Numbered from the stretch's first letter, positions 3,333-55,439 are shown. The stretch is 64,000 nucleotides of DNA from Candidatus Omnitrophota bacterium (GCA_028707125.1 JAQTUX010000002.1:144355-208354); one strand, 5' to 3'. The notes: a model not told the origin generated them from the sequence alone. Made by a program: numbers and translations.

Positions 3333-4338
3333 CGCTATAAAGATATTTTGATACTTCCGCCTCATCGGGAAACGGGCTATTCCGGGCAAACTCAAATGCC
3401 TCGTCTATCTCTTTATCAAAGGCCTGATTAAAACAAGTGATATCTGATCCGCTTATTACCTGTCTATCCAGCAAGAAGAGCTCAAAATTTTTAAGCGGGC
3501 ACCTTTCCATCCAGGCGTCCAATTCTTCCTGTGTCCTGTACCCCAACTCTATATCGGTGCCGCCCCCCGAATGCCCGCACCATCTGTAAGTGCAAAATTC
3601 TATAAAAGAAGGCCCTTTACCGCGGCGCGCGTCCTCAACCGCCCTTCTGCCTACGCAGTAAACATCGACCACATTGTTGCCGTCCGCCTTGTAACGCGAA
3701 ATACCGAAGCCGTCAAAACGCTCATATATATCTTTGGAAGGCTGACGATTACTCCTGTGAGAGCATACCGCATAAAGATTATTCTCACAGACGTATATCA
3801 CAGGCAGTCTTTTAAGCATCGCGAAATTAATACTTTCATATAATACGCCCTCGTCAACCGCCCCATCGCCGAATAATACCATCGTCACCCGCTTATTTCC
3901 CTGCAACAAAGAACCGAGGGCGGCCCCTGTGGCAATAGGTATACCGCCGGCTACGATCGAAGAAGAACCCAGTAATCCCACTGAGTTATCGATCAAATGC
4001 ATTGAGCCGCCCCTGCCGCGGGAACAACCGGTTTCCCTGCCGTATAATTCGGCAATAAGCGATTTTAAGTCCCCGCCCTTAGCAAGATAATGGCCGTGCC
4101 CTCTGTAATTACTAAGAAGGTAATCCTCCTTATCCAGATGGGCGCACATACCGGCAGGTATTGCCTCCTGCCCCTTGCAGAGATGAACCGGCGTCTTCAT
4201 TTCGTCTTTGGGATACTCCTCTTCTATCCTGACCTGCACCTTTCTTATCCTCAACATCTGTTTATAAAGCCGGACCAAATGCTCCCGGGGGATATCCCCG
4301 ATATTCTTATCGTAATTGATCATGGGGCCTTTTTCCAT
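3322..4338 (-). CDS. E1 alpha subunit of a TPP-dependent dehydrogenase (pyruvate or acetoin dehydrogenase E1 alpha family).
   Basis: YRGHGH...GRGGSMHL and CENNLYA motifs are typical of E1 alpha. Its start overlaps the stop of the upstream B12 radical SAM gene (TAATG at 4336-4340). No E2 or E3 gene lies nearby. Confidence 0.8.
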   Translation of the reverse strand: MEKGPMINYDKNIGDIPREHLVRLYKQMLRIRKVQVRIEEEYPKDEMKTPVHLCKGQEAIPAGMCAHLDKEDYLLSNYRGHGHYLAKGGDLKSLIAELYGRETGCSRGRGGSMHLIDNSVGLLGSSSIVAGGIPIATGAALGSLLQGNKRVTMVLFGDGAVDEGVLYESINFAMLKRLPVIYVCENNLYAVCSHRSNRQPSKDIYERFDGFGISRYKADGNNVVDVYCVGRRAVEDARRGKGPSFIEFCTYRWCGHSGGGTDIELGYRTQEELDAWMERCPLKNFELFLLDRQVISGSDITCFNQAFDKEIDEAFEFARNSPFPDEAEVSKYLYSDGE

Positions 4339-5810
4339 TACGCGTATTTCCTGCGTATTGTTGTCCTTAACATATCTTTGATATGATCCACAACCTTCGA
4401 TCCGAACCTTTTCCGGATCATTTCTATATATGCCGGATCGCTGAAATATTCACGGAAGGCGCTGTCCCTGAAGCGCAGAACCTCCGCGGATGAAAGGTGC
4501 TTGGTCGCCAGCGCCAAAGTATCTTCCGCATACTGGCCATACGCATGCCATTGCCCCGGAAGCTCTCTGCCGTCTCTTACGGCATCCCTGTACAGGTCTG
4601 ACCCGGGATAGGCCATGGCTACATAAAAATTCACGTATTCAAAATTAAGCTCCTTTGACATATCCAGGGTCTTCCGCATGGATTCCAGAGTATCATCAGG
4701 CAGCCCGAATATAAAATTGCCGAGCGTATGAATACCCGCGCGCTTTGTCATATCAACGGCCTCTGATATTTTATCCTGGGATATCCTTTTTGCGACACCT
4801 TCACGGACACCGCCGCTCGCGGACTCAACGCCAAAGCAAAGCCAGTTGATCCCCGCCCGTTTCATCGCCGGCAGTATATCGCCGCTAACCGTATCAACGC
4901 GCGCGTATGCCCAGATATTGAGCCTGTACCCCCTTTGGATAATAAGCTCGCATATACGCGTAAGGCGCTCTTTCTTGATCACAAACAACTCATCAAGGAT
5001 CTTGATATTGCGCACATTATAATTTTTAACTAAAATATCTATCTCCTCTATTACCTTCTCCGGGCTGCGAAAACGAATGCCGCATTTACCATAGAAGGCA
5101 TGTATGGGACAATAGCTGCAATTAAACGGGCATCCCAAACTGGTGAAGATCACCGCATAGGGGCTTCTTTTGTCTAAATCCTCGAAGCAGTGCCAGTTAT
5201 GGGCCTTATACTTATGCATAGGTAAAAGATCCCAGGCGGCAAAAGGAAGGCGGTCAAGATCCTCGATCAAAGATGCGGGCGCGGGCGCTCTTACGCCGGT
5301 ATCATCCATATACCAAAGCCCTTCTATTCCGCAATCTTCCGGCCTTTTCCCGGATCTTAATGCCTCCAGGGTTTTAAGAAAGGTATAAAATCCCTCGCCC
5401 TGGCATACAAAATCTACCTTCTCCTCCCTGATGGTTTGTTCAGGAAGCGCGGAAGGATGAAGCCCGGAAAGGATCGTTTTCACAGCGCTACCCTTGCTAT
5501 GCAGGACGTTCAGGAGTTCGCTCACCGCGGTCATTTTAGGCGTGGAAGAAGCGGATGGATTGGTCCCCAAAACAACGATACCGGCCAAAAGCGGATTTAA
5601 CTCGGCGATCTTCTCTGCCGTGTATTCCGGGCTCCAGTTCTCCGCATCCGCGTCAATGATCCCTACAGAATATCCCTGCTCGCGGATGAACCCGGCGATC
5701 AACCCGCACCACAGAGGAGGTTCGATGCCGGCCAGAGACTCGCCTAATCTGCCGTACATCTGAGCGCGATTACCGGGGTTTACCAGCAATAGGTCTAACC
5801 GCTTATCCAC
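4338..5810 (-). CDS. Cobalamin-binding (class B) radical SAM enzyme, paralogue 1 of 7.
   Basis: 490 aa. The N-terminus is a Rossmann-like B12-binding domain (LLLVNPG...GIIDAD...IVVLGT). The radical SAM cluster motif is SLGCPFNCSYCP. Confidence 0.85.
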   Translation of the reverse strand: MDKRLDLLLVNPGNRAQMYGRLGESLAGIEPPLWCGLIAGFIREQGYSVGIIDADAENWSPEYTAEKIAELNPLLAGIVVLGTNPSASSTPKMTAVSELLNVLHSKGSAVKTILSGLHPSALPEQTIREEKVDFVCQGEGFYTFLKTLEALRSGKRPEDCGIEGLWYMDDTGVRAPAPASLIEDLDRLPFAAWDLLPMHKYKAHNWHCFEDLDKRSPYAVIFTSLGCPFNCSYCPIHAFYGKCGIRFRSPEKVIEEIDILVKNYNVRNIKILDELFVIKKERLTRICELIIQRGYRLNIWAYARVDTVSGDILPAMKRAGINWLCFGVESASGGVREGVAKRISQDKISEAVDMTKRAGIHTLGNFIFGLPDDTLESMRKTLDMSKELNFEYVNFYVAMAYPGSDLYRDAVRDGRELPGQWHAYGQYAEDTLALATKHLSSAEVLRFRDSAFREYFSDPAYIEMIRKRFGSKVVDHIKDMLRTTIRRKYA

Positions 5811-6526
5811 AAAGTCCTCCTCAGGATCTTCTCAGCCTGCTTAAGCCTTTCCGGAGTTCCGATATCTATAAAACCGCCCTCGGCCAAATACCCGTAAAAC
5901 TCCCTCTTCACCATAACCGGGAAAAAATCATTCTCCAAAGAAAAGTTCTTATCTTCCGGCATTTCAGACAATATCTCCTTGCGGAACAAATAAATGCCGC
6001 CGTTGACAAAACCATCGCCCTTAACGGATTTCTCGCTGAACGCGTTGATACGCTGCGACTCACCCAAAATTATACTGCCATAATCGCTGCTGTCTGATTC
6101 AGGCGAAACGACTATGGAACAGTACGCCTTCTTCCGGGTATGGAACTCTAAAAACTTGCCCAGATCTACGTCGCAGAAAGAATCTCCGTTCATAACCAGG
6201 AATATATCGCTTCCAATCTTTGAGGAGGCATTTTTGATACACCCCCCGGTGCCCATTAACGCCTTCTCCTCAGAGAATACAATATCATAATTGCCCTTTC
6301 CGCCCTTATAATATCGTTTAATAAATTCAGCCCCGTACCCTATACAGAGAATAAAACGCCTGAATCCAAAACGCGCGGCATAATCGATAAGAATATCCAG
6401 AAAAGGACGGCCGCCGATCTCTATCATCGGTTTAGGCAAATCCCCTGCAACCGGCCTGATGCGCCTGCCTTCTCCCCCGCAAAGTATTACCGCGTCTATA
6501 TCCTCAAATGCCGGCCTTTTGCTCAT
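5795..6526 (-). CDS. Sugar-1-phosphate nucleotidyltransferase, resembling the D-glycero-alpha-D-manno-heptose-1-P guanylyltransferase HddC.
   Basis: NTP_transferase N-terminus: AVILCGGEGRRIRPVAGDLPKPMIEIGGRPFLD. It sits next to a GHMP kinase. Confidence 0.6.
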   Translation of the reverse strand: MSKRPAFEDIDAVILCGGEGRRIRPVAGDLPKPMIEIGGRPFLDILIDYAARFGFRRFILCIGYGAEFIKRYYKGGKGNYDIVFSEEKALMGTGGCIKNASSKIGSDIFLVMNGDSFCDVDLGKFLEFHTRKKAYCSIVVSPESDSSDYGSIILGESQRINAFSEKSVKGDGFVNGGIYLFRKEILSEMPEDKNFSLENDFFPVMVKREFYGYLAEGGFIDIGTPERLKQAEKILRRTLWISG

Positions 6527-7527
6527 TATGTTGTCAATGAATCCCCCGGGCTGTAAAATATAATCTGGCTGCCTAAATTCTCAAACCTGAAAGGCACATG
6601 TAAAAGATCCTTTAAGCTCTCGCGGATCTTTGGCTGGGCATCAGGCCGGGCAAAAAACAAGATAAATCCTCCGCCGCCTGCGCCTAATACCTTTCCTCCC
6701 CGCGCGCCTGCCCTGATCGCCGCAGAGTAGATATCATCTATTAAGGGCGTGGCTATCTTGCTTGACAGGCTGCGTTTCAGCATCCAGTTTTCATGTAAAA
6801 GTTTCCCGAAATCCGATAAATCGGAGTTGCTGTTTAATATGCTCAAGGCCTTATCTACCAAGCCATACATGGCGCGCAGTTCTTTCTGCTTATGCGGCGT
6901 CTTCTCTATCTGCTCCCGGGCGATCTCTGATGCCGTGCGGGAAAACCCGGTAAAGAAAAGCATCAAATGGGACTGGAATACCCTGAGGCGCTCGACGTCT
7001 ATAGTCACAGGCCTGACCTGAATATGATCCTTGCCTCCGAATTCTATAAGGCTAAACCCCCCAAAGGCGGCTAACGCCTGATCCTGCGAACCGACGTTTT
7101 CCTTCATAACCTCCTGCTCAAGATGAATGGCATCCAATACCAGCTGCCGCTTAGTCGGCATGACGCCCTTAAGCGCGTAAAGCGCGTGAAGCAGGCCAAC
7201 GGTAAAGGCGGAACTCGACCCCATACCCGTGCGCGCGGGCAGATCGCCGTCGTGATGAACCTCCACCCCTTTATCTATGCCTATAAACTTCAGGCAGGCC
7301 CTGACGGAGGGATGCTGGATCTCATCGATCTCCTTTACGAATTCCATCCTGGAATATATTATCCTTGACTTATGTTCAAAGAAAGGAGGCAGATGCCTGC
7401 AGCTAAGATAGCAGTACTTATTTATCGTCGTAGCCAATACGGCTCCGCCGTTATCTCTATACCATACGGGATAGTCCGTACCCCCGCCAAAAAAAGAAAT
7501 GCGAAAAGGCGTTCGGCTGATAACCAT
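6526..7527 (-). CDS. GHMP-family sugar kinase, resembling the heptose 7-phosphate kinase HddA.
   Basis: The N-terminus (TPFRISFFGGGTDYP) and the GHMP motif (PARTGMGSSSAF), then GAGGGGF near the C-terminus. It shares one nucleotide with the downstream nucleotidyltransferase ORF. Confidence 0.6.
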   Translation of the reverse strand: MVISRTPFRISFFGGGTDYPVWYRDNGGAVLATTINKYCYLSCRHLPPFFEHKSRIIYSRMEFVKEIDEIQHPSVRACLKFIGIDKGVEVHHDGDLPARTGMGSSSAFTVGLLHALYALKGVMPTKRQLVLDAIHLEQEVMKENVGSQDQALAAFGGFSLIEFGGKDHIQVRPVTIDVERLRVFQSHLMLFFTGFSRTASEIAREQIEKTPHKQKELRAMYGLVDKALSILNSNSDLSDFGKLLHENWMLKRSLSSKIATPLIDDIYSAAIRAGARGGKVLGAGGGGFILFFARPDAQPKIRESLKDLLHVPFRFENLGSQIIFYSPGDSLTT

Positions 7528-7535
7528 ATCTCTCC

Positions 7536-8468
7536 TTAAACGTTGGAAAACTGATTTCTTCTTACGACCTGGTATCCTTTGATCAATTCTGAAATACCTT
7601 CTGGGAGCGAAATATCGGGTTTATATCCTGTGCCTTTGATCTTTCCGTTGCTTACGATATAATCCCTCTTGTCGGGATCCTCGCCTACCTCTGCCTCGGT
7701 AAAATAAAAATCGGGCGCCTGTTTCTTGATCTCCTCGCACAACTCCCGCTTGCTAAGGTTGGCATTGCTTAAACCCACATTATATGTTTGATTTTTCATC
7801 CGTTCAAAATTATTCAAACAGTGGATGAATGCCTTGGCAACATCCCGCACGTGAATATAGTTTCTTTTAAAATGCGCCTCAAAAATAACCAGAAACCTGT
7901 CCGTTACCGCGCGATAAGTAAAATCATTCACCAAGAGGTCCAGCCGCATGCGGGGACTGACGCCGAATGCCGTAGCCAGCCTCAAAGTGATGCTGTTGCC
8001 CGCGTCCAATATGGCCTTCTCCGCCTCAACCTTCAAATTACCGTAAAGGGAAACCGGACGTAAGGGCGTCTCTTCGGTACAGAAGATGCCCTTTTCTCCC
8101 ACCCCATATCCGCTGTTAGTGGTAGGGTAAATAACAATCTGCTCCCTGCTGCGCAAACCCAGTATTGTCTTCACCGCATCCACGATAATCGTCCTGGCCT
8201 CGATAGGGCGCATCTTACAGAGCGGGGCGCCGGTCAGGCAGGCCAGGGGAAAGACGGCATCCGCCCCCTTTAGATGACGAGATATCAAATCCCTGTCTCG
8301 CGCATCGCCCCTGATTATGGCCAGATTACCGTAATGGCAGCAATCCAACAGAGGGCTCTGATTATACATGAAATTGTCAATAACCGTCACTTCAAAATCA
8401 TTGGCCAATAATTGCGGGACCAATACAGAACCTATATAACCCGCTCCTCCAGTTACCAATATCTTCAT
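7536..8468 (-). CDS. NAD-dependent epimerase/dehydratase (extended SDR).
   Basis: MKILVTGGAGYIGS and a YxxxK motif. I moved the start to the ATG at 8468, which follows a GGGAGG RBS. The ORF track extends it to 8495. Confidence 0.75.
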   Translation of the reverse strand: MKILVTGGAGYIGSVLVPQLLANDFEVTVIDNFMYNQSPLLDCCHYGNLAIIRGDARDRDLISRHLKGADAVFPLACLTGAPLCKMRPIEARTIIVDAVKTILGLRSREQIVIYPTTNSGYGVGEKGIFCTEETPLRPVSLYGNLKVEAEKAILDAGNSITLRLATAFGVSPRMRLDLLVNDFTYRAVTDRFLVIFEAHFKRNYIHVRDVAKAFIHCLNNFERMKNQTYNVGLSNANLSKRELCEEIKKQAPDFYFTEAEVGEDPDKRDYIVSNGKIKGTGYKPDISLPEGISELIKGYQVVRRNQFSNV

Positions 8469-8481
8469 GGTCTTCCTCCCA

Positions 8482-9186
8482 TTAACGCCAAACAAATACC
8501 TCCTTTAAAACCTGAGTCAAATAAGCCGAGCCCCAGCGCACTATCTGTAATTTTCGCTTACCCCATAACCTGCGCGGCTCATCAGCAGGAATCTCGGTAA
8601 TCCTTAATTTTCTCTTTGCGGCCCTAACCGAAAGAAGAGGCATAATACATATCTTTGTATGAAACAATGCCTCCTCCCGGGAATAATTTTCATCCCTGTC
8701 AAGCTCTAAGTCGCGTATCAACTCCTTTTTAAAAGCGCGGAACATATTCATCGCGTCTGTATACTTGCCTCCGTGAAGCACGTTAATCAAAGAGGTGAAC
8801 ATCCAATTACCGAACGAAGTTATTAAACTGTCATCGTAGCTCCTGGCATCTTTTAAATATCGGGAGGCGATCACCATATCATATCCTTCCTCCATTTTCT
8901 TAACCAGCTGGGGTATGACCTCGGGTTTGCAATTACCGTCCGGACTGAATGGAATGATCACATCCCCTGTTATGCGGCCCAACGCCTCAATGTAGGCGTT
9001 CCTTATACCGGGTTTTTTCTGGACGATAACTGAATAACCGTTCTTCATGGCGTATTCAGCGGTTCCGTCGGTGGATCTTCCATCCACCACGAAAATCTCA
9101 TCCACCCATTCCCTTTTAATCTGCGGCATGATCTGCTTCATGCCGTCTATCTCATTCAAGGTCAATACAAGTAAGGTTGTCTTCAT
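8482..9186 (-). CDS. Family-2 glycosyltransferase, Dpm1/polyprenol-phosphate sugar synthase-like, soluble form.
   Basis: 234 aa. N-terminal GT-A motifs: LLVLTLNE, VVDGRSTDGT. No C-terminal transmembrane segments. Confidence 0.65.
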   Translation of the reverse strand: MKTTLLVLTLNEIDGMKQIMPQIKREWVDEIFVVDGRSTDGTAEYAMKNGYSVIVQKKPGIRNAYIEALGRITGDVIIPFSPDGNCKPEVIPQLVKKMEEGYDMVIASRYLKDARSYDDSLITSFGNWMFTSLINVLHGGKYTDAMNMFRAFKKELIRDLELDRDENYSREEALFHTKICIMPLLSVRAAKRKLRITEIPADEPRRLWGKRKLQIVRWGSAYLTQVLKEVFVWR

Positions 9187-10729
9187 TAAAACTCCTCCGG
9201 TCTGATTTATAAAAGATCTTGTTTCTCAGGTACTTAATAATCGCCAGATCGCCGAAGAACGTGTAGTATTTATTCTTCAGCCTGAATCTGTAATAACGGC
9301 TTATCGGCACATAGGCGATCTTCAACACAGCCCTTAAGAAGGCGTTCCTGATAGAATTGATGACATTAGGCACGGCATTGGCGAGGATGCTCATATAGGA
9401 TATATTTCCCAGCCGTATCCTGTCCTTACGATCAAACCAGGGATTCTTTCTGCCTTCCAGATCATAATCATCGTAAATCCAGTCGATCCACCCCTCCAGC
9501 TGCCGGGGCGCCTTGAGGCCGTTTTTAAGCGCCGACTCATACATTGGCGTCGCCGGCAGGGCCGTATAAATGGCCATGGTCTCAAACAGGGCGTTGGGAT
9601 TATCCCTTTTGAGGCGGAAAGAAAGGTCTATGGTCTTATCGATATCTTCAAATGTTTCACCGGGAAAACCGATCATTAACGCAAAGGCGGGAGTGATCCC
9701 CGCGGCCTTTGCCTTGAGATTGGCCCTGATCGTATCTTCTACCTTTATGCCCTTATTGGAAAGCTCCAGCACCCTGTCTGAACCGGACTCGGCGCCGAAT
9801 TTCAGAACATAGGCGCCGCTCTTTTTTAGAAGCGCCGTCTGCTCATCGCTGGCCTTATTAAAAACATCTACCCGGGTTCCGGATGTATACCAATGGATCT
9901 TCAGGTCATTCCGGATGATCCCTTCGCATATCCTCTGGGCCCTTTCCCGATTGATGTAGAACTCATCGTCCCTTATCCAGATGCCGCTGAGCCCGAATCT
10001 CTTCACCGTATCTACGATGATCCCGAGGCTCTTTTCAACAGACATATCGCGCCATTTCCTCTTTCGCAAACTTGCGCTGCTGCAAAAGCCGCAGTTAAAC
10101 GGGCACCCCCTGCTGGTCTGGCCTATGTCAAGGGTCCTTAAACTTTCCTTTAAATACATATCGGGATGTATGTACTTTTCCACGTCGATCAATCCCCATG
10201 GGACAGGCAATAATCCCTCAACGTCAATCAATGCCCGATCCGGGTTTCTTACGGCCCTGCCGCCGTCCTTGTAGGCAATGCCTTCTATCCCGGAAAGCGA
10301 GCCGCCTGAGGCCAGCGCCCCTACTAACTCCCGGAAGGTAACATCGCCTTCGCCAACGCAGACTATATCCACGTATTCGCTCATCAGGGTTTGCTCCGGC
10401 AGTATAGACGGATGCGGCCCGCCCCAGACTATCGGGACCTTGCCGCCCGCGGCCCTTCGCACGACCTTTGCCGCTTCAATCGCAAAGTGGATCTGCGTGC
10501 CTGTCATTGAAGAGATGCCTACGCATACGGGGCCGGACTTCAATGCCTCGGTTAAATTGCGGCCCCAATCCTTATCCACCCGCTGGTCTATTATACTGAC
10601 CTTATAACCGCCCTTCTGAAGCGGCGCGGCTATGGTTAAAAGAGAATGCGGCACGGCAACGGTTGAGCCGAAATCCATCCCTGTCTTGGGATAAACAAGG
10701 ACTACATCTGCGGCTTTATTTTCCTGCAT
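9152..10729 (-). CDS. Cobalamin-binding (class B) radical SAM enzyme, paralogue 2 of 7.
   Basis: 525 aa. B12-binding N-terminus (VVLVYPKTG...IIDQR...VWGGPHPS) and radical SAM motif TSRGCPFNCGFCS. Confidence 0.85.
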   Translation of the reverse strand: MQENKAADVVLVYPKTGMDFGSTVAVPHSLLTIAAPLQKGGYKVSIIDQRVDKDWGRNLTEALKSGPVCVGISSMTGTQIHFAIEAAKVVRRAAGGKVPIVWGGPHPSILPEQTLMSEYVDIVCVGEGDVTFRELVGALASGGSLSGIEGIAYKDGGRAVRNPDRALIDVEGLLPVPWGLIDVEKYIHPDMYLKESLRTLDIGQTSRGCPFNCGFCSSASLRKRKWRDMSVEKSLGIIVDTVKRFGLSGIWIRDDEFYINRERAQRICEGIIRNDLKIHWYTSGTRVDVFNKASDEQTALLKKSGAYVLKFGAESGSDRVLELSNKGIKVEDTIRANLKAKAAGITPAFALMIGFPGETFEDIDKTIDLSFRLKRDNPNALFETMAIYTALPATPMYESALKNGLKAPRQLEGWIDWIYDDYDLEGRKNPWFDRKDRIRLGNISYMSILANAVPNVINSIRNAFLRAVLKIAYVPISRYYRFRLKNKYYTFFGDLAIIKYLRNKIFYKSDRRSFNEDNLTCIDLE

Positions 10730-10736
10730 AGCTCTC

Positions 10737-12095
10737 CTAAAGAATAAAGGCCAGATTATTCCTGACCCAGCTCAGAATCGGGACGGCCATCACATAGAAT
10801 AAAAGGTTCAACGCCATAATAACGCCTATTATTGCCAATGACAGGTATTTATTTTTGAACTTGCCCCAGATAGTAAATATACCCAGGCTGGCGAATATTA
10901 TCAAATATGGCTCCAGAGGGTAACGATGCCTGGTGTCGCCTGAAAAGATCATAACCATAAAACTGGCATACAAAAATGATAACAGCAGTAATGCGGTGTT
11001 TACGTTCAACCCGGGCCTCACGGCTTTGATTATGCCGACTATACCGAACATAAGAATAATTGAATACCAGATATTATATATCCTCTGCATACCGTTATTA
11101 TAATGCGTCTGAAATACATCCCATAGGCACAATACTTTCTTAAGCAGCAATTTCGGCATGCGCTTATAATCAGCGGCTATAAATTTAATGGCGGTATTCT
11201 TATAGAATTTATCCTGCTCCACTTCGTTCATCCGGCTGATCTGCTTCATTTCTTCATTCGTAAATATCCGGCTGAAATCGCCGAAGGAGCTCCCCTTTGC
11301 ATAAGGGTTATTGCTGTTAAGCAGGGCGCCTCCGCCCATTGTGGAAAAAGGGACGAGCGCCCTGTGCACAAGATAATTTCTAAATGCCCATGGCGAAATA
11401 GTCAGCGTGAAAACAGCGCACATAACCAATATCCCTCTTAACGCGAGCTTAAGCGGATAACGGTATATCAACAATCCGGACAAAAATAGAGGGAAAAAGG
11501 CATTAAACGGCCTTGTTAAGGCAAGCAGGCCCAGAAAAACCCCGGATATAACCGCTCCTTTCATCTTAAGATTTACGAAGAAACCGCTTATCAGGAATAA
11601 TACAAATAAACCATACAAAATGTTGAACAGATTCTCCGAATACAGGAATCCCGGGCCGCCATAAAAGGCATAAGATATATACGGCTGATAAAAGGCAAGT
11701 ATAAGTGCCGACAATAGCCCTATGCGTTCATCAAAGATCTTCCGGCCGATATAATAGATAATAACGCACAATAAAGCGCCCATAATGCTCTGAATGACCC
11801 TTACCGCGACATAATTATGGCCAAAGGCCCGATAGATAGATGCCAGAAACAAGGGATATAAAGGGGTGCGCAAAGATGTCGGCCCCTTTTCCGGATCCAT
11901 GGAATAACCATTGCCTGACGCTAAATTGACGGCTATAGTGTCGTAATCCAGCGCATCAGCTCCCGGTTTTTGCAGGTATCGCGGCAGATTCAAAACAGCC
12001 GCTATGCGCAAAGATAAGGCGGCAACGAAAATTAACAACAAAAGCCGCTTCCTATATCTTGTCCAATTTGAGAATACTGAATTTACCATCATCAT
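10737..12095 (-). CDS. GT-C membrane glycosyltransferase, ArnT/PMT (GT39/GT83-like, PMT_2) family.
   Basis: 452 aa with about 11 predicted transmembrane segments. First-loop signature: ADALDYDTIAVNLASGNGYS...RTPLYPLFLASIY. Confidence 0.6.
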   Translation of the reverse strand: MMMVNSVFSNWTRYRKRLLLLIFVAALSLRIAAVLNLPRYLQKPGADALDYDTIAVNLASGNGYSMDPEKGPTSLRTPLYPLFLASIYRAFGHNYVAVRVIQSIMGALLCVIIYYIGRKIFDERIGLLSALILAFYQPYISYAFYGGPGFLYSENLFNILYGLFVLFLISGFFVNLKMKGAVISGVFLGLLALTRPFNAFFPLFLSGLLIYRYPLKLALRGILVMCAVFTLTISPWAFRNYLVHRALVPFSTMGGGALLNSNNPYAKGSSFGDFSRIFTNEEMKQISRMNEVEQDKFYKNTAIKFIAADYKRMPKLLLKKVLCLWDVFQTHYNNGMQRIYNIWYSIILMFGIVGIIKAVRPGLNVNTALLLLSFLYASFMVMIFSGDTRHRYPLEPYLIIFASLGIFTIWGKFKNKYLSLAIIGVIMALNLLFYVMAVPILSWVRNNLAFIL

Positions 12096-43118: not shown

Positions 43119-43119
43119 A

Positions 43120-43860
43120 TCAGACCGCGGTCCACCCTCCGTCTACGACAAGGTTGTGCCCCGTTACATAGCCCGACGCGTCGGATGCCAGGTATATTGC
43201 CGCTCCCGCTATATCAACCGCCTTTGCCATCCTTCCCAGAGGGGTCTTGTCTGAATATCTTTTCACAAAGGCATCCGCCTGCCTGTCGCGCACACCGCCC
43301 GGAGAAATACAATTAACCCTGACCCCATGCCCGCCGTAGTAGGAAGCGAGGTATCTCGTGAAAGCGATTATTCCGCCCTTAATAGCGGAATAGGCTCCGG
43401 GGCAGGTCATTTTGGTATTCTTATAAATAGAGAAATCCGGCCCGACCATGCCATAAATAGAAGCAAGGTTAATAATGGACCCGCCTCCCTTCTTTTTCAT
43501 ATACTCGGCGGCATTCCGGCAGCAGATAAAATACCCGTTAAGGTGCGTATCGATATTCTTTCTCCAGGACGATACCGGCACATCCTCAAACTTCAAGGCC
43601 CAATCGCCGGTCCTGGGATAAGCGCTGTTGACCCATATATCCATACGGCCATATTTCTTATCCACAAACTTGATCAAAGAAGAGACCGACCGCTCATTGG
43701 CGATATCCACATGCCGGCCGGCGTTTTTATTGATATCGGCGGCCACAACAGAGGCGCCAAATGCCGACAGGCCGCGCGCTATTTCCTTTCCAATCAACCC
43801 CGCGCCCCCCGCTACAACCGCTACCTTGCCTTTCAGGCAGAAAAGATCATCGTATTTCAT
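43120..43860 (-). CDS. Short-chain dehydrogenase/reductase (classical SDR), possibly a PtmA-like accessory enzyme of the nonulosonic acid module.
   Basis: KVAVVAGGAGLIGKEIA glycine-rich motif and YSAIK (YxxxK). Confidence 0.75.
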   Translation of the reverse strand: MKYDDLFCLKGKVAVVAGGAGLIGKEIARGLSAFGASVVAADINKNAGRHVDIANERSVSSLIKFVDKKYGRMDIWVNSAYPRTGDWALKFEDVPVSSWRKNIDTHLNGYFICCRNAAEYMKKKGGGSIINLASIYGMVGPDFSIYKNTKMTCPGAYSAIKGGIIAFTRYLASYYGGHGVRVNCISPGGVRDRQADAFVKRYSDKTPLGRMAKAVDIAGAAIYLASDASGYVTGHNLVVDGGWTAV

Positions 43861-44581: not shown

Positions 44582-44583
44582 AT

Positions 44584-47622: not shown

Positions 47623-47626
47623 ATCC

Positions 47627-48067
47627 CTACCTTGAAAATGTTTCTATTTCTTTCCTGGTCAATTTCCTCGCTACCTTTGCCGGAACCCCGTAGGCCAGCA
47701 CATTGGCCGGTATATCTTTATTTACAAAACTGAAGGCGCCGATGACCGAATTCTCACCGATCTTTACCGCCGGCATTATCACGCTGTGGCTGCCGATCCT
47801 GCAATTCCTGCTCAAGGTAACCGGCCCCTGTTTATTGTCAATAGTAGAAACGGAGTATACGGAGCAATGAGACCCTATCTGGACATAATCCTCTATGGCC
47901 ACGCCCTTCTTGGCGTTAATATACGTATAGGCCCCTATATCGGTCTTGTAACCCAACTTAAAATTGCCCTTATGCTGAACCAACCAGTTGAATTTCGTAG
48001 GCCTGCCTTCTTCTATTTTCGGGTATTTCCAATCCTTGAATCTTGCGCCCATGTCGCTCCTCATCAA
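47627..48067 (-). CDS. Hexapeptide-repeat (left-handed beta-helix) acyl/acetyltransferase.
   Basis: 146 aa with isoleucine-patch repeats (VQIGSHCSVYSV...CRIGSHSVIMPAVKIGENSVIGAFSFV). Confidence 0.7.
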   Translation of the reverse strand: MMRSDMGARFKDWKYPKIEEGRPTKFNWLVQHKGNFKLGYKTDIGAYTYINAKKGVAIEDYVQIGSHCSVYSVSTIDNKQGPVTLSRNCRIGSHSVIMPAVKIGENSVIGAFSFVNKDIPANVLAYGVPAKVARKLTRKEIETFSR

Positions 48068-49209
48068 TAAGAAATCCTTTTGTTTAATAACCTGCTGTTT
48101 ATCCTGAGCCCTTTCAAGATCTTTGTTATTCTTTCAGACGCCCTGCCGTCGCCGTATGGATTCCTATCCTTCATAAGCCGCCTTCTAAAATTCATATCAA
48201 AAATCGCCTTCTTAATCGCGGACTTGATCTCGTTCTTATCATACCCCGTATCTATCACGTTAGCCGCCCTTTCCCTGCCTTGCTGCCTTGCGCCTACATT
48301 AACTGCCGGCAGATGAAATGACGGGGCCTCAATGATCCCAGAACTGGAATTCCCGACCAGGGCGCCTGCCAGACCCATAAGCCCCAGGTAATCTCCATAA
48401 GGGATACTCCTGAATATCCGTATAAAGGGATACCTTCTATATTTTTCAATAATGCCTATAATGTCCCTGCTGCCGGCATCCGCGTTAGGGTAAATTACGA
48501 TCGTCTGATGCCCCAATTCTTTGAGGGCCTCCATTGTCTGTTTCATTTGACGCCCGGCATTATCAACATCCATAGTAACCGGATGTTGGATCGCCAAAAT
48601 AACCGGCTTAGAGAGGTCCAGATCATACCTGCGCGGCAGGCCCTCCCTGGAAGTCGCGAACCTGCCGTTGACGATATTATCCAGGCCAGGCGCGCCCACA
48701 ACATTTATGCGCCAGGCATCCTCCCCCATCCTTTTTATCCTCCCGGCTGCCTGGCGGGTAGCCGCCAAATGAAAATGAGAAAGTTTAGTTATCGCGTGCC
48801 GGACGGTCTCGTCAACCGTGGAAGTAACCTCTCCTCCGTGAATATGGACCACGGGTATTGACATATAGGAGCCTGTAATCGCCGCCCCCAGCATCTCCGC
48901 TCTGTCTCCCAATATAAGAATAATGTCGGGGGCGATCCTGCCGATACCCCTGGCAAACTTTGAGGTAAAATCGCCTATAAATCCGGCCATGGACCGCTTA
49001 TCATTGCCCTTGTATACCGCCCTGATTATGTGGACGGGAATATTATCCTTTCTTATCTCGTTAACCGTCTTGCCGAATTCCGGCATCAGATGCATGCCCG
49101 TGGCAACGATATCCAGCTTAAGGCCGGGATGCCCCTTAATGGCAGACAATGTATTCCTCATCAGTCCATACTCAGCCCGCGTACCGGAAACATACAGGAT
49201 ATTTCTCAT
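48064..49209 (-). CDS. legG: Hydrolysing NDP-N-acetylhexosamine 2-epimerase (NeuC/LegG family).
   Basis: MRNILYVSGTRAEYGLM...HIHGGEVT...GNSSSGIIEAP matches NeuC-type epimerase_2 motifs. 381 aa. Confidence 0.8.
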   Translation of the reverse strand: MRNILYVSGTRAEYGLMRNTLSAIKGHPGLKLDIVATGMHLMPEFGKTVNEIRKDNIPVHIIRAVYKGNDKRSMAGFIGDFTSKFARGIGRIAPDIILILGDRAEMLGAAITGSYMSIPVVHIHGGEVTSTVDETVRHAITKLSHFHLAATRQAAGRIKRMGEDAWRINVVGAPGLDNIVNGRFATSREGLPRRYDLDLSKPVILAIQHPVTMDVDNAGRQMKQTMEALKELGHQTIVIYPNADAGSRDIIGIIEKYRRYPFIRIFRSIPYGDYLGLMGLAGALVGNSSSGIIEAPSFHLPAVNVGARQQGRERAANVIDTGYDKNEIKSAIKKAIFDMNFRRRLMKDRNPYGDGRASERITKILKGLRINSRLLNKRISY

Positions 49210-50222
49210 ATTAAATCATGAAACCTTATCAAGGAATCCTTCTTAAGGCCCCTTCTGGCTTCTCTGCCTATTATTCTATCTAAGTATTTTGGGGCGACTC
49301 CGATGCCCGGCCTTTTAATATCGATCGCGTCATTCGTTATCTTGGCGCCCTTGGGTATATCTATTTTCGCCACTATGCTTTTCCTGACATGTCTTTTGAT
49401 CCTTTTCTCATCCCTGGTGGGCGCCTTGACCCCGTTACCGATGGCCTTCTCGGTATTCCGTATCCCATCCACCAAGCTCTTTAACTGGTCCGGCTCAAGG
49501 CTCATCATGTGGTCCGGCCCTTTCATATTCCTGTCTAAGGTAAAATGTTTCTCTATTACTGTGGCGCCCAGGGCAACTGCCGCGATAGAGATCTCGATGC
49601 CTTCCGTATGGTCGGAATATCCCACGTTGACACCCAGGGCGTCTCTTATGGTAAGCATGGCCAGAAGATTGACATCCCTATAGGCAGCCGGATAAGCCGT
49701 TGTGCAGTGCAAAAAGGTTATATTGTTTTTAGAAACACCTGAACGCACCAGAATATTTAACGCCTGTCTGGCCTCGTCCAGGTCTGCCATGCCGGTAGAG
49801 ACAATGACCCTTTTCCCTATACCTCCTATCTTTCTTAGATAGGGAATATTCGTTATTTCTCCCGAAGGTATCTTGAATATCCTCAGCCCCAGCCCGTTAA
49901 GCAGGTCTATGCTCTCCAAATCGAACGGGCTTGATAAAAACGCTATCCGTTTCTGCCGGCAATGACGGATAAGTTCTCTGTGGGCATCCAGGCCAAGCTC
50001 CAGCTTTTCTAACATCTGAAGCTGCGATTCATTTCTGGCTGTGGCCCGGAGCTGATACCCTGCCTTCAGAGCGAGTCTGCTGGCCAGCCGGCGCGCCCGG
50101 AATGTCTGAAATTTGACCGCGTCGGCTCCGGCATAAGAAGCGGCGTCTATCAGCCGTTTGGCCAATTTAACGCTTCCGTTGTGGTTAACCCCTGCCTCTG
50201 CTATTATAAAAACCTTACTCAT
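49206..50222 (-). CDS. legI: Nonulosonic acid synthase (NeuB family; N-acetylneuraminate/legionaminate synthase).
   Basis: [26 protein letters not shown]...KFQTF...SSPFD motifs. 338 aa. Confidence 0.85.
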   Translation of the reverse strand: MSKVFIIAEAGVNHNGSVKLAKRLIDAASYAGADAVKFQTFRARRLASRLALKAGYQLRATARNESQLQMLEKLELGLDAHRELIRHCRQKRIAFLSSPFDLESIDLLNGLGLRIFKIPSGEITNIPYLRKIGGIGKRVIVSTGMADLDEARQALNILVRSGVSKNNITFLHCTTAYPAAYRDVNLLAMLTIRDALGVNVGYSDHTEGIEISIAAVALGATVIEKHFTLDRNMKGPDHMMSLEPDQLKSLVDGIRNTEKAIGNGVKAPTRDEKRIKRHVRKSIVAKIDIPKGAKITNDAIDIKRPGIGVAPKYLDRIIGREARRGLKKDSLIRFHDLI

Positions 50223-51931
50223 AAGCGGCCTTCAAATTTATGCCTCAAGGGATAAAAAGAAACAGCCGGCAATTCAGGCAAACCTTTATCAAGCCATCTA
50301 CGATAGGGGACGTCGGGATATTTTAAAAGGATCTCCCGATTTACCAATAACTCCCCTTCCCTGTAATGTATGAATATCAACTTCCTGAAATCAAAGGCAT
50401 CCTCTCCCCAATGCGAAAGCCGCCTCAATCTGCCGTCATCCGGGCCGCCGGGCAATCTTCTCTTTTTAAGTTCGGCGGCAGTGCATACCTTGTATCTCCG
50501 GAATGACTCCGGCTGCCCTGATGCCGCATACAACAGGTTCAGGGGAAACTCAAAATCATAATAATTATTCAGGTCGGCATAAAAATAGCCGTTCTCCATA
50601 TTAAAAAACGGTATGGCGGCCTGGGCGTCCGCAAAGAACATCGCCTCCGGCGGAAGGGCGGGAAAACGCTCCCTAAACGCCTGAAAAAATCTGCTTTCTT
50701 CCTGCCATCCCCTGAAATACAAGTCAAGGTTAACATTGTTGAAAAAGACGCCCAACCCGAAAAAAGACGCCAGAAAAACACGATACAGCCTCGCCCTGAT
50801 ATTTGAGCCGGCAGACGCCCTGAATATCAAGTATAAAAAGGCGGCGGCTAAAACAGACCAGCCAAACTGCAGTATTATGCCATGCCTTGAGCTTGAGCCA
50901 GGGGCACCGGCATTGCCGACATATAAATACATAATCATCGGAAAGACCAGCAATACAGAGCCAAACAACATAGAAAACCCGAACCAACCACCGTCATCCT
51001 TGCGCTGCTCTGCAATAATTATCCGCCTCAAAGCATAAAAGCTCAAAATTCCGGCAGTTACCCCCAATAGCACCGACCAGCCGTTTACAGACGGAAAATG
51101 CCTTGCGAAAATATACCAACTCTGGAATAAAAGATATTTTAACGCCTGCGGATATTTGGCTAAATTAAGCATCCCCGAAAAATTCCCCGCGTATGCCCCT
51201 TCGTAGATACCGTAGGGGCTGAATTTTAATTTATATACGACCAAGGGTGCGCACAACAACAGAAATGGCGACCAGGCGGTCATCGCCTTCTTCAGTGACC
51301 TTCTCCAGCTCCCTGTATCCAGGGCAAGCAGGCGGCATATCAAAATAAACCTTGCCGGTTCCAAAGCCACTGTCCCCTCCATAAGCAGATAGGCAACCGC
51401 TGAAATCCCCAGTGCCGCGGACAAAAACCGCAGCCGCCCGCTGCCTGTAAATGCCCTGTATGTCAAATAAAAGGAAATGACGCTCAAGCATACACCCAGG
51501 CGATAATAAAGATTGGCGTAAACAGGCATTGAGCTATCCAAAGGGGATGCCAGAAAACAACCGGCAGCCAAAAAGGCCAAAAGGCGGCTTTTCCCGGACA
51601 GACCCCTGATAAAAATATAAATAAAGGCCGCTGACACGACCTCTATGAATATGGCGGCGGAATGCCATATCATATAAGCATGGTCCGATACCTTATGAAG
51701 ATTAAAAAGATAATACAGGAATGCGCCTTGCGGTATCCTTCTCATCTGCGCAAAACCCATATTGATAAATTCACCCGGGCTGCCGCTTGAATATGCCGAT
51801 ATAAGCCAGCAATTATCGTCCCAGGCGGCGTTATGGAACAAATATAACCTGCCGTAGCTTAACAGCGCCAGAAATACAATAAATACCGGAGTATAAAAAT
51901 CGCCTCTTTTAGACATCATAACCGGCAGCAA
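50219..51931 (-). CDS. Multi-pass integral membrane protein, probably a GT-C-like glycosyltransferase. Function unknown.
   Basis: 570 aa. It has about 11 hydrophobic helices and a ~130-aa soluble C-terminus. The first loop ([21 protein letters not shown]) resembles the ArnT/PMT-like paralogues. Confidence 0.4.
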
Positions 51932-53080: not shown

Positions 53081-53704
53081 TTACGCCATTGAATAAAAAC
53101 TGATCCCTGACAACTCCTTGTCGTTATTGAGCCTGTGTAAGATCTCGTCATTATATCTTATTGACGTAACCAATACCGCGTCCGGCCTTAATTCCTTTAT
53201 GATCCGCGGGGGCTGCACAATAAATCCGAACATCTTATTGTTATGCTTATTTTCATCATCATCTGTTATGCCTAAAACCGAAAACTCAAAACCAGAGCCA
53301 TTTATAATAATAAACACCACTTCTAAGACCTCGCCCGCCCCATAGCATACTATGCGCTTATGCCCCGCGGTAGAAAGCGTGTTAAGGCTGGCAGTTACCT
53401 TATCTCTTAAGGCGGAATAATAGCTGACGGTGTGTTGAAGAAAATGATAGGCCAGTCTGGCTTTTTCGCTGAAACCTTTAGGGGTAAGATAGTAACCTAT
53501 CCGCTTGTGATTAATGCCTTGGGCCTTTACCAGCCCTTTGCTGACCATCTTTTTCAGGCAGGCATTGGTCACACCCAGGGCTACGCCTAAACGCTGGGAA
53601 AGTTTGCGCTGTGAAACAGTGGAGTCCTTAGCTATCTCCTCCAATAACTGAAGATTGCGTAAGTTTTCGGTAGGTTTTAAAAACTTGTCTTGCAATTCCG
53701 GCAT
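53081..53704 (-). CDS. Putative transcriptional regulator with an N-terminal winged-helix and a C-terminal Rossmann-like domain (a Rex-like layout).
   Basis: The N-terminus reads as a helix-turn-helix (TVSQRKLSQRLGVALGVTNACLKKMVSKGLV). The C-terminus (KRIVCYGAGEVLEVV...GFIVQPP...DAVLVTS) resembles a CoA/NAD-binding Rossmann domain. It is the first gene after the only large intergenic gap. Confidence 0.45.
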   Translation of the reverse strand: MPELQDKFLKPTENLRNLQLLEEIAKDSTVSQRKLSQRLGVALGVTNACLKKMVSKGLVKAQGINHKRIGYYLTPKGFSEKARLAYHFLQHTVSYYSALRDKVTASLNTLSTAGHKRIVCYGAGEVLEVVFIIINGSGFEFSVLGITDDDENKHNNKMFGFIVQPPRIIKELRPDAVLVTSIRYNDEILHRLNNDKELSGISFYSMA

Positions 53705-53900
53705 GTAATTTTGGCCTGTTGCCCTGAAAAACCCGAGTTTTCCGGGGGGTGGCGTTCTAAAAATGAACGATTACCATTTTACGGCTTTTGCCCTGCTTTG
53801 TCAAGTGACTTCTGCGTTCAAATCAGCCGGAAAAAGCCGCTATCTTAAGCTCGTATCTTCTTCAAATGCAATTGGTTTTGCTCCTGTAGAAAAGGCGGGA
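53705..53900 (-). promoter_or_regulatory. Largest intergenic region in the window; candidate promoter/operator or attenuator for the regulator gene and the downstream nonulosonic-acid genes.
   Basis: It is a 196 bp non-coding gap in an otherwise gap-free locus. It contains a weak stem followed by a T-run (CCCGGAAAACTCGGGTTTTT on the transcribed strand) about 30 nt upstream of the regulator start. Confidence 0.3.
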
Positions 53901-55439
53901 TTAAGCGCGCTGCATAAGGCGGTTGAGGATCTTGATCTTTCTGAATTTGGACAAAATAAACCTTTCCGTTTTTAGTTCCTGCCTGCCTGACAGGACATTC
54001 AATACCACGCGGCCGGTTTTAACCGGATGGAAGGCCGCCTTGACTCCATGGAACAAAAGGTAACCGGAGATCTGGTAGACCTTTAATTCCCAATCAGCGA
54101 TATCCTCTGACCAGGACCTGGCCTTACCGATGTCGCCCATTGATATCAATGAGGCGAAGAATGCCTCGTCTACCTTTATTTTTCCTGCTTTGCGGAGTTT
54201 ATCAAACAATTTTGCTCCCGGCAAAGGGGCAAACAGCCCTGCCACACATTCATCAACGCCGTTCTTCGCCAGCCGCATCATCAAGCCTAATGTCTTAAAA
54301 ATATCGCCTTTTTTCTCTCCGGGGAACCCCATAATGAAGTATACCGACGTCTTGATCTTGGCCCTATTCGCGATCCTGGCGACCTTGATGATCTCCTCCA
54401 GATCCAGGGACTTGCCGATGATCTCATCAAGCACCCTTTTTGAGCCGGATTCCGGAGCCAGGATAATATTGGTGCATCCTGCCTCAACCATCCTGGAGAT
54501 GATCTCCGCGTTCATCCTATGCGGCCTTATTCCGTTTGCCGGCTGCCAGTTGATCTTAACCCCCTGCCTGATAAGCTCATCGCAAAATGCCAGCAATCTG
54601 CCCGGCTCAGTATTCATGTTCTCATCTTCAAAGTGGACCTCTTCGATCCCGTACTTCTTTTGCAGGAATATTATTTCCTCAACCACCTTTTTAGGGTCCC
54701 GTGGGCGCCATTTCCTTCTCCAGATCCCGGGGGTGGTGCAAAATGAACAATCATAGGGGCAGCCCCTTGAAAATAACATGACTGTCCACTTGTCAGACCT
54801 CGTGCAGCCGTGCGGCTCCCTGAACCTGAAATAATTATTCATGGGAACGGCATCCCAATCCGGATAAGGCAGGGAATCCACATCCTGCAATAACTCAATA
54901 TCCTTATTGATAATAAGCCCGGAACCATGCTTAAAACATAACCCGGGGATATCCTTCAAATCAGAAAGATCGACTTCCCATTGATTTCCAGCCAATGCCC
55001 GGCATAGCTTAAGGAAGGTGATCTCCGCCTCTCCCACGCAAACAAAATCAACGCATCCGGACATCAGCATGTATTCGGGCAGGGCCGATGCATGCGCCCC
55101 TCCCAGGACCAGGACCGCCTTAGGCAGCCTCTCTTTGATCGATCTGCATAGGTCCATTACAAACGCGTGCGCTATTGAGAATAAACAGGAGATCCCTATG
55201 ACCCTGGTTGCAGGATGGATCTTTTCTATAAGTTCCGAAGGCCGCAAGCCCCTATAGGCGCTGCCTTTATATTTATAATACTGGCCGGGATTCTCGCCAA
55301 GGCCGTCGATCAGATGCACTCTAAAATTATTTTTTTTAAGAATCGATGAGATGTACAGCAGGCCAAGCGGAGGTGTGACCCCGTCGGTAACCTGCGTAGG
55401 GGAAGAAAATTGCGCGGGATTGATAAGCGTTATGTCCAT
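53901..55439 (-). CDS. Cobalamin-binding (class B) radical SAM enzyme, paralogue 7 of 7.
   Basis: 512 aa. The N-terminus is MDITLINPAQF...LIDG...LGGAHAS. Radical SAM motif: FSRGCPYDCSFCT. Confidence 0.85.
   Translation of the reverse strand: MDITLINPAQFSSPTQVTDGVTPPLGLLYISSILKKNNFRVHLIDGLGENPGQYYKYKGSAYRGLRPSELIEKIHPATRVIGISCLFSIAHAFVMDLCRSIKERLPKAVLVLGGAHASALPEYMLMSGCVDFVCVGEAEITFLKLCRALAGNQWEVDLSDLKDIPGLCFKHGSGLIINKDIELLQDVDSLPYPDWDAVPMNNYFRFREPHGCTRSDKWTVMLFSRGCPYDCSFCTTPGIWRRKWRPRDPKKVVEEIIFLQKKYGIEEVHFEDENMNTEPGRLLAFCDELIRQGVKINWQPANGIRPHRMNAEIISRMVEAGCTNIILAPESGSKRVLDEIIGKSLDLEEIIKVARIANRAKIKTSVYFIMGFPGEKKGDIFKTLGLMMRLAKNGVDECVAGLFAPLPGAKLFDKLRKAGKIKVDEAFFASLISMGDIGKARSWSEDIADWELKVYQISGYLLFHGVKAAFHPVKTGRVVLNVLSGRQELKTERFILSKFRKIKILNRLMQRA

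Follow-up and report, generated by a model that had tools for sequence, protein, structure and literature searches.

The DNA analysed here is a 64,000-nucleotide stretch of a Candidatus Omnitrophota genome (GCA_028707125.1, JAQTUX010000002.1:144355-208354), hereafter the window, which carries seven genes (R1 to R7) for proteins that combine a B12-binding domain with a radical S-adenosylmethionine (SAM) core, all within one glycan biosynthesis locus (Table 1). The window is filled by a near-unbroken minus-strand array of 59 co-directional genes, in which 35 gene junctions overlap, 16 have a gap of 0-20 nt and one gap is longer than 100 nt. All seven open reading frames (ORFs) that an earlier note on this DNA had listed were found on the minus strand with exactly the cluster motifs quoted there, and the gene calls of an independent Logan assembly and of NCBI match these coordinates. 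For R5, the longest ORF starts at 26047 (TTG), and the ATG at 26011 agrees with the 477-aa call in both sources. The window proteins are identical to MDD4910420-MDD4910462 of an Omnitrophota metagenome-assembled genome, with the annotations 'radical SAM protein' or 'cobalamin-dependent protein'.

Table 1 Features of the Omnitrophota glycan locus. Positions are those of the window. Abbreviations are CMP cytidine monophosphate, EPS extracellular polysaccharide, FAD flavin adenine dinucleotide, GT glycosyltransferase, PDH pyruvate dehydrogenase, SDR short-chain dehydrogenase/reductase, TPP thiamine pyrophosphate, UDP uridine diphosphate.
Feature	Position	Strand	Description	Evidence
R1	4338-5810	minus	490 aa, GTG start, CPFNCSYC	PF02310 60.4 bits, PF04055 65 bits
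R2	9152-10729	minus	525 aa, CPFNCGFC	PF02310 64.5 bits, PF04055 86.9 bits
R3	16085-17473	minus	462 aa, CPFACTFC	PF02310 60.4 bits, PF04055 94.6 bits
R4	17445-18980	minus	511 aa, CPHQCTYC	PF02310 74.1 bits, PF04055 98.2 bits
R5	24578-26011	minus	477 aa, CPIGCTFC	PF02310 81.2 bits, PF04055 85 bits
R6	31782-33308	minus	508 aa, CPYRCAYC, most divergent of the seven	PF02310 46.8 bits, PF04055 59.9 bits
R7	53901-55439	minus	512 aa, CPYDCSFC	PF02310 60.7 bits, PF04055 77 bits
R8	39416-40315	minus	eighth radical SAM protein, no B12 domain, 299 aa, CNMQCANC at residue 18	PF04055 34.4 bits (N-terminal part), Fer4_12
M1	1134-8495	minus	SDR epimerase (7536-8495), GHMP kinase (6526-7527), nucleotidyltransferase (5795-6526), R1, TPP pair, FAD oxidoreductase	Pfam
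M1 TPP pair	3322-4338 and 2268-3395	minus	PDH-E1-like alpha and beta subunits	Pfam
M1 FAD oxidoreductase	1134-2267	minus		Pfam
M2b	8482-12095	minus	GT-C PMT_2 (10737-12095), R2, small GT2 (8482-9186, 234 aa)	Pfam
M2a	13816-20622	minus	methyltransferase (19684-20622), GT2 (18981-19682, 233 aa), R4, R3, GDSL/SGNH (15108-16103), PMT_2 (13816-15111)	Pfam
M3	26659-36998	minus	HpcH/HpaI aldolase (36234-36998), unknown 393-aa protein, methyltransferase, CMP-transferase (33301-34002), R6, methyltransferase, unknown 578-aa protein (weak TIGR04326), 2-hydroxyacid dehydrogenase, SDR, HAD phosphatase	Pfam, NCBIfam
Cyclase-family gene	25995-26675
Nonulosonic acid genes	40348-50222	minus	NeuB, NeuC-like, hexapeptide acetyltransferase, DegT, PseB-like dehydratase, GFO, CMP-transferase, SDR, HisF/HisH-like pair, WbuX	Pfam, NCBIfam
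Acetamidino-forming module	40348-43118	minus	WbuX and HisH/HisF-like genes
Proteins of 569-584 aa	12052-13806, 29107-30843, 50219-51931, 56396-58105	minus	four proteins	no Pfam match
Regulator region	53081-53900	minus	207-aa gene after the gap	MarR/EPS-regulator N-terminus 72.8 bits (cut-off 88)
Intergenic gap	53705-53900		196 nt
Promoter-like match	53804-53776		sigma-70-like, 11/12
GT2 upstream of R7	55464-56393
Head of locus	59391-63816	minus	UDP-glucose dehydrogenase, RmlC-like, RmlA, RmlB, RmlD	Pfam

A hidden Markov model search placed the B12-binding domain PF02310 in the N-terminal ~140 residues of all seven proteins with 46.8-81.2 bits (gathering cut-off 32.1). The Radical_SAM domain PF04055 was likewise present in every protein with 59.9-98.2 bits (cut-off 29.5), and its profile was covered almost end to end. 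Each protein contains one CxxxCxxC motif, located at residues 196-228, and a GG-x-H-P-(S/T) stretch is conserved in the R1 and R4 families. The proposed combination of an N-terminal B12-binding domain with a radical SAM core was thus recovered throughout, and domains, motif and the modelled folds of R1 and R4 (see below) identify the architecture as that of class B radical SAM enzymes. By their sequences, the seven proteins are predicted to bind and use a cobamide. Signal peptides or convincing transmembrane segments were detected in none of them. They are therefore cytoplasmic and should meet precursors rather than the exported glycan.

Pairwise, R1 to R7 share 23-32% identity across 340-500 aligned residues (E-values from 1e-16 to 1e-73). 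The previous description of the genes as old paralogues is consistent with these values, but the accompanying statement that little identity exists beyond the core motifs is not, because this identity spans 340-500 residues and homology extends along the whole length. Orthologues with 52-88% identity occur in other organisms for each of R1, R3, R4 and R6; the enzymes compared have far closer relatives elsewhere than inside the window. In the contigs of representative genomes, the sole relative of R4 showed 33% identity. Judged by sequence divergence, the seven are clearly old paralogues which appear to form seven separate lineages.

Subfamily placement was based on NCBIfam cut-offs and comparison with the Protein Data Bank (PDB), and the fold evidence on predicted models of R1 and R4. 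None of the seven proteins reached the curated NCBIfam cut-offs for BchE, HpnJ, HpnR, PhpK/SD_1168, the methyl-coenzyme M reductase (MCR) Gln methylase, TsrM, BzaD, KedN5, the ladderane radical SAM family or ApyD. The highest score was obtained for R5 with the P-methyltransferase SD_1168 (318 bits, cut-off 575) in a nearly full-length alignment, and the same model was among the top matches of R3 and R7. All other subfamily scores were at most 175 bits against cut-offs of 251-775, including those for BchE, HpnJ and ApyD (55-175 bits, cut-offs 481-750). The AprD4 model NF033070 gave 29.9-100.2 bits (cut-off 500), and the scores for TIGR04014 and TIGR04428 were also far below cut-off. The proteins thus do not group with BchE, HemN-like enzymes or lipid methylases; such a grouping, which according to the earlier note would have spoken against its proposal, was not observed. 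SD_1168 (Sden_1168) is the top curated family for R5, yet P-methylation by R5 was rejected as unlikely because the window contains no phosphoenolpyruvate mutase or other phosphonate gene.

All matches to PDB sequences were remote, with E-values no better than ~1e-19. AprD4 and MgmA (9ccb) mostly ranked highest, followed by TokK, CysS, TsrM and OxsB; the best match of R2 was OxsB (7e-16). The AlphaFold2 model of R4, built with 36 homologues, reached a pLDDT of 90 and a pTM of 0.88. Its closest folds were MgmA (9ccb, E 1e-21) and TsrM (6wte, 5e-21), followed by AprD4, CysS, OxsB and TokK, and the matches to MgmA, TsrM, CysS, OxsB and TokK all had E-values of at most 1e-15. MgmA (QCMT), the glutamine C-methylase of MCR, and TsrM resemble R4 in their minimal size and in the succession of B12 domain, core and short C-terminal helical region, but they act on a protein or an amino acid and are 16-17% identical to R4. 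In the R1 model (AlphaFold2, pLDDT 80.6), TsrM was nearly level with the first-ranked structure (see below), and TsrM, MgmA, OxsB, CysS and TokK matched with E-values of at most 1e-13.

The surroundings of the seven genes consist overwhelmingly of glycan genes, so the claim that they are embedded in one glycan biosynthesis locus is right. According to Pfam and NCBIfam, the window contains rmlABCD-like genes, two sugar-nucleotide dehydrogenases, six GT2/GT4 glycosyltransferases, two GT-C transferases of the PMT_2 family, three DegT aminotransferases, four class I methyltransferase-like genes (one of them a weak match), a GDSL protein, a MarR-type EPS regulator and a Wzx flippase (PF01943, 38.8 bits, cut-off 28.2). 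NeuB (TIGR03569, 468.2 bits, cut-off 399.65) and a hydrolysing NeuC (TIGR03568, 418.9 bits, cut-off 235.9) establish a Neu/Leg-type nonulosonic acid pathway in the locus; the accompanying dehydratase, aminotransferase and CMP-transferase remained below the thresholds of the PseB/PseC/PseF and Leg models. The gene lptD lies directly upstream of the final gene of the window on the same strand. Beyond the window start, at least 10 kb of further glycan genes follow (DegT, SDR, GT2, two AsnB-like genes, a methyltransferase and two GT4), which together with 63 kb in the window gives a locus of more than 73 kb. It is best read as encoding an O-antigen-like, Wzx-dependent surface glycan.

R1 lies in a module (M1) that extends off the window with DegT and a 4,6-dehydratase-like SDR. 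The best NCBIfam matches of its kinase and nucleotidyltransferase are HddA and HddC, respectively, both sub-threshold. The TPP pair has an intact GDG...NN motif (NCBIfam 319 vs 394 and 318.7 vs 321), and its presence suggests that the sugar pathway includes the transfer of a two-carbon unit. In a Methanoperedens locus (L091) and a Chloroflexi locus (L092), the SDR is 73% identical to that of the window, the GHMP kinase 67-68%, R1 65-66% and DegT 43-45%. The nucleotidyltransferase (48%) is found in L091 only, and the PDH-E1-like alpha and beta subunits (60% and 64%; L092 positions 3765-5841) and a second SDR (50%) in L092 only. By Pfam content, a GHMP kinase and R1 are accompanied by SDRs and a split TPP pair of the transketolase type in two further loci, L095 and L096, of which L096 alone also carries DegT. 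Such split pairs replace the PDH-E1-like pair at the same position in other loci, an apparent non-orthologous replacement. GmhA-like SIS and GmhB-like HAD genes occur in two of the four related loci (L091 and L096), all four carry Wzm/Wzt transporters, and L096 adjoins an STT3/AglB oligosaccharyltransferase.

Chloroflexi and Methanoperedens have retained M1 with 43-73% identity, which points to a role of R1 in a nucleotide-sugar pathway. Plausibly, R1 belongs to a mobile cross-domain cassette for a nucleotide-activated, heptose-derived sugar. Together with the GHMP kinase, the nucleotidyltransferase, the SDRs, DegT and the TPP pair, R1 would yield a modified nucleotide-activated sugar, possibly a heptose or higher sugar, and its substrate would be the nucleoside diphosphate (NDP)-sugar or the phosphate precursor thereof. 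More than 120 cluster representatives (63-88% identity, 99-100% coverage) belong to the R1 family, with sources in Omnitrophota, Chloroflexota, Methanoperedens and other Euryarchaeota, and an alignment of 40 sequences showed a mean column identity of 78% across bacteria and archaea. This conservation is unusual for a class B enzyme. An invariant H-N-W-H-C stretch ~20 residues ahead of the R1 cluster motif is a candidate substrate or metal site.

R2, R3 and R4 are found in two modules (M2b and M2a) with small GT2 and GT-C genes. The setting of R2 parallels that of R3 and R4: the PMT_2 gene precedes R2, which overlaps the downstream small GT2. The small GT2 proteins of both modules resemble polyprenyl-phosphate sugar synthases, with AglJ, dolichyl-phosphate hexose transferase, ArnC and PpgS among the sub-threshold NCBIfam matches (the first three are the best for the GT2 of M2b). 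Orthologues of R3 and R4 with 70% identity lie side by side in metagenome contigs (L008/L009), and L008 keeps the order of the window with GT2 (60%), R4 (70%), R3 (70%) and PMT_2 (47%). In the scheme that we propose, the small GT2 would load a sugar onto polyprenyl phosphate, R2, R3 and R4 would modify the lipid-linked monosaccharide, and the GT-C transferase would afterwards attach the modified sugar to the glycan at the periplasmic face.

The third module (M3) contains R6, with the cyclase-family gene and R5 just downstream, outside its span. The R6 orthogroup is small and consists of six cluster representatives beyond the window protein (52-78% identity). Nine M3 genes are kept in one other locus (L094, 29-70% identity) and six in another (L093), among them the CMP-transferase (41-53%), R6 (52-60%), the HpcH aldolase (63%) and the SDR (70%). 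The 393-aa unknown, a methyltransferase, a ~570-aa TIGR04326-like protein, the 2-hydroxyacid dehydrogenase and the HAD protein are further conserved neighbours. In L094/L093, M3 adjoins NeuB, GFO, SDR and CMP-transferase genes of the nonulosonic acid pathway. R6, and probably R5 too, would thus act with the second CMP-transferase, the pyruvate aldolase and the class I methyltransferases on an ulosonic-acid-type sugar, and the substrate of R6 (perhaps also of R5) would be a CMP-activated or free ulosonic acid.

Loci with several such genes were also found elsewhere. Scalindua japonica (L010; BAOS01000001, 167403-188887) encodes four B12-binding radical SAM proteins, two SPASM radical SAM proteins, a 238-aa GT2, a PMT and a GDSL protein. 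This locus also contains a GH26 glycosidase and adjoins a gene for a very large FG-GAP repeat protein, which is possibly the surface protein receiving the glycan. Another Omnitrophota genome has four B12-binding radical SAM genes around a small GT2, adjoining Wzy, Wzx and GDSL genes. A metagenome contig (L064) shows the order GT2, radical SAM, GT2, radical SAM, PMT_2, radical SAM (frameshift-split), radical SAM; these are four B12-binding enzymes by Pfam, one of them frameshift-split, and five if a truncated contig-end ORF seen only in the phmmer survey is included. In that survey, the window proteins served as queries against 41 loci with R4-like genes, each at least 8 kb long. L006/L007 and L008/L009 are duplicates, so 39 of the 41 loci are independent. 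At least two B12-binding radical SAM genes were detected in 16 of the 41 loci and at least two glycan-type genes in 22, counts which are descriptive only, as the survey had no random-window control and underestimates remote homologues; it was seeded with R4-like sequences. No other locus seen had as many as seven B12-binding radical SAM genes, yet four or five in one locus is not a rare number. The earlier impression of a glycan pathway without parallel was therefore overstated, since four to five such enzymes occur with GT2/GT-C genes in these three cases.

Together, we consider it probable that the seven proteins are sugar-tailoring enzymes of class B architecture, organised in at least three independently conserved sub-cassettes of a surface-glycan locus. 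From the genomic context we infer both the substrates and methyl transfer. The conserved neighbourhoods comprise kinases, nucleotidyl- or CMP-transferases and polyprenyl-phosphate sugar synthases, and therefore point to activated monosaccharides. Of the substrates suggested earlier, this favours nucleotide sugars and polyprenyl-phosphate-linked sugars and disfavours the assembled glycan. Mechanistically, the [4Fe-4S] cluster would cleave SAM to a 5'-deoxyadenosyl radical, which would abstract hydrogen from an unactivated sugar carbon; methylcobalamin would then provide the methyl group, leading to C-methylated or branched sugars as in GenK and GenD1. By analogy and as a prior expectation, C-methylation is the most likely chemistry overall. 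According to a 2026 review of the family, C-methyltransferases are present in every functionally characterised group.

Several observations weigh against this interpretation. The seven belong to lineages described from sequence data, and as each of them stays below every curated subfamily cut-off, homology offers no basis for assigning them a chemistry. The class I methyltransferases of the locus, four or more in number, could themselves account for methylation. The 64-kb window contains no cobalamin riboswitch, transporter or biosynthesis genes (an Rfam scan of positions 1-64000 at the gathering threshold matched no family), and neither an initiating phosphoglycosyltransferase nor a recognisable Wzy was found within it (no Pfam match to Wzy_C, Bac_transf or Glycos_transf_4). 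The survey of related loci had no random-window control. According to the 2026 review, class B enzymes that do not methylate cannot be recognised by any particular feature, and AprD4 and ArsL share the similarity network yet bind no cobalamin, in AprD4 despite a Rossmann-like domain. Finally, AprD4 (6fd2) was the top PDB sequence match for R1, R4, R5 and R7 and the top fold for the R1 model (E 1e-20, TM-score 0.69-0.75, 21-22% identity). The extensive C-methylation proposed earlier is thus an inference, as methylases and non-methylating members are inseparable by sequence and AprD4 is the best or near-best solved relative.

These similarities make radical dehydration a real rival and a serious alternative, especially for R1. 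Some or all of the seven could act like AprD4, independently of cobalamin, and convert a sugar 1,2-diol to a keto-deoxy sugar that the neighbouring SDR reduces or DegT transaminates, yielding deoxy or amino-deoxy sugars in place of C-methylated ones. AprD4 and AprD3 are the dehydratase-reductase pair of the apramycin pathway, and the co-conservation of R1 with the adjacent SDR (73% across domains) and DegT parallels this arrangement, which is why the alternative fits R1 best. Against it, all seven proteins exceed the gathering score of the Pfam B12-binding domain, which sets them apart from AprD4 as an enzyme that binds no cobalamin, their scores for the AprD4 model remain far below its cut-off, and the identity is ~13-22%. 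The AprD4 sequence alignments start at query residue 133 or later and cover mostly the radical SAM core, whereas those to the true cobalamin binders MgmA, TokK, CysS, TsrM and OxsB start well inside the first ~135 residues in six of the seven proteins (R6 with one weak match). In the case of R4, MgmA and TsrM rank above AprD4 by fold. On balance, we regard dehydration as rather unlikely, with R1 as the best candidate for it.

A further explanation, which we judge to be clearly less probable still, is that the carbon skeleton of precursor sugars is not the target. The enzymes would then modify substituents of the nonulosonic acid (N-acyl, acetamidino or glyceroyl groups) or the completed glycan or glycoprotein, or they would catalyse other radical reactions such as epimerisation or a ring contraction as in HpnJ. 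HpnJ is an enzyme that rearranges a sugar moiety, and BchE and HpnJ are among the top sub-threshold NCBIfam matches for most of the seven. The R5/R6 region is moreover rich in genes of substituent chemistry (2-hydroxyacid dehydrogenase, HAD, cyclase, methyltransferases, with WbuXYZ nearby), and non-methylating members belong to the largest, unexplored group of the 2026 review. However, the cytoplasmic location of the proteins argues against action on a finished glycan, and the tight conservation with sugar-activating genes favours activated monosaccharides. It is very improbable that the radical SAM genes have nothing to do with the glycan, being either part of an interleaved pathway for a ribosomally synthesised and post-translationally modified peptide (RiPP), a lipid or a cofactor, or decaying paralogues. 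Matches below threshold to ApyD and rSAM_ocin_1, both RiPP methylases, and to the family of ladderane lipids could be taken in this sense, but the array contains no precursor-peptide, lipid-synthesis or cofactor genes, the radical SAM genes overlap their glycan neighbours in an operon-like arrangement, all seven are full length with intact motifs, and three cassettes of radical SAM and sugar enzymes are conserved in distant taxa.

For the favoured C-methylation, the best functional analogy is offered by GenK and GenD1 of gentamicin biosynthesis, Fms7 and MoeK5, which have known sugar substrates and, by description rather than by sequence comparison, the same combination of B12-binding and radical SAM domains as R1 to R7. 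They differ in their setting, as they serve aminoglycoside or phosphoglycolipid antibiotics with one to three enzymes per cluster, whereas R1 to R7 lie in a surface-glycan locus and have enzymes of nucleotide-, CMP- and polyprenyl-phosphate-sugar formation as neighbours. To our knowledge, all class B radical SAM enzymes characterised with sugar substrates come from the biosynthesis of antibiotics. In the 2026 review, GenK, GenD1, Fms7 and MoeK5 are listed as Csp3 methyltransferases, and the words sugar, glycan and polysaccharide are absent from it. The small GT2 and PMT_2 genes of the window resemble the ArnC/ArnT, GtrB/GtrC and DprE1/E2 systems, in which a polyprenyl-phosphate sugar is formed before a GT-C transferase acts. 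Modification of a sugar on its lipid carrier is known from ArnD and DprE1/E2, and we know of no radical SAM enzyme in systems of these types.

Our literature search yielded no paper linking class B radical SAM enzymes to O-antigen, polysaccharide, capsule, S-layer glycan or nonulosonic acid loci, and nothing relevant on the GHMP-kinase/heptose context or on Sden_1168. An Omnitrophota complete-genome preprint mentions radical SAM solely as a Pfam domain in giant proteins. The S-layer O-glycan of Kuenenia carries up to five methyl groups, the positions of which were assigned from mass alone; a connection to the Scalindua locus is circumstantial, and thus suggestive without being evidence.

The architecture of the enzymes was already known; what is new are the separately conserved radical SAM cassettes, the unclassified lineages, the setting and probably the substrate classes. 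We place the weight on the recurrence of the cassettes across phyla and domains, because loci with four to five enzymes are not rare. As a tentative joint proposal, for which the chances seem to us slightly less than even, class B radical SAM enzymes may be a widespread, unrecognised class of surface-sugar tailoring enzymes in uncultivated anaerobic bacteria and archaea, with nucleotide-, CMP- and polyprenyl-phosphate-linked monosaccharides as substrates. The R1 cassette (three core genes at 65-73% identity between Omnitrophota, Chloroflexi and Methanoperedens) would then encode a new, horizontally mobile pathway to a C-methylated, branched or radically deoxygenated heptose-like sugar, and R2, R3 and R4 would be the first enzymes known to modify a sugar by radical chemistry on its lipid carrier, ahead of transfer by GT-C. 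If true, this would mean a biological function for a substantial, so far uncharacterised share of the class B family, predict that the envelopes of Omnitrophota, anammox bacteria, Chloroflexi and archaea carry new C-methyl, branched or deoxy sugars, and tie the diversity of surface glycans in anoxic habitats to the availability of cobamides. Owing to its small size and strong conservation, the R1 cassette is directly accessible to experiments through gene synthesis, even with an uncultivated host.

Besides the seven B12-type genes, the number of which agrees with the earlier count, the window encodes an eighth radical SAM protein without a B12 domain (R8) that had been missed. R8 is located between a GT2 and the WbuX amidotransferase and has weak, N-terminal NCBIfam matches. 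R8-like ORFs adjoin R4- or R5-like genes in two other loci (L021 and L055). Immediately downstream of the nonulosonic acid genes, the WbuX gene (TIGR03573, 345.6 bits, cut-off 203.2) and the HisH/HisF-like genes make up a module for acetamidino formation, which suggests an N-acetimidoyl nonulosonic acid as the product, as in Legionella-type O-antigens.

A GT2 gene and the gene for a polytopic membrane protein of 569 aa precede R7. Three of the four 569-584-aa proteins are polytopic, with six or more transmembrane-like segments; they have no family match and may be candidates for a polymerase, ligase or GT-C role or for the initiating transferase, although the locus also continues beyond the window. 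The fourth is soluble, shows a weak match to TIGR04326 (LIC13510 surface carbohydrate) and is kept beside R6 orthologues. The sole long intergenic gap of the array contains the sigma-70-like promoter match and is followed by the 207-aa gene, so that this region may represent an internal promoter and regulator. The C-terminal stretch of the MarR/EPS-like protein encoded there weakly resembles the C-methyltransferase C-terminal domain PF08484.

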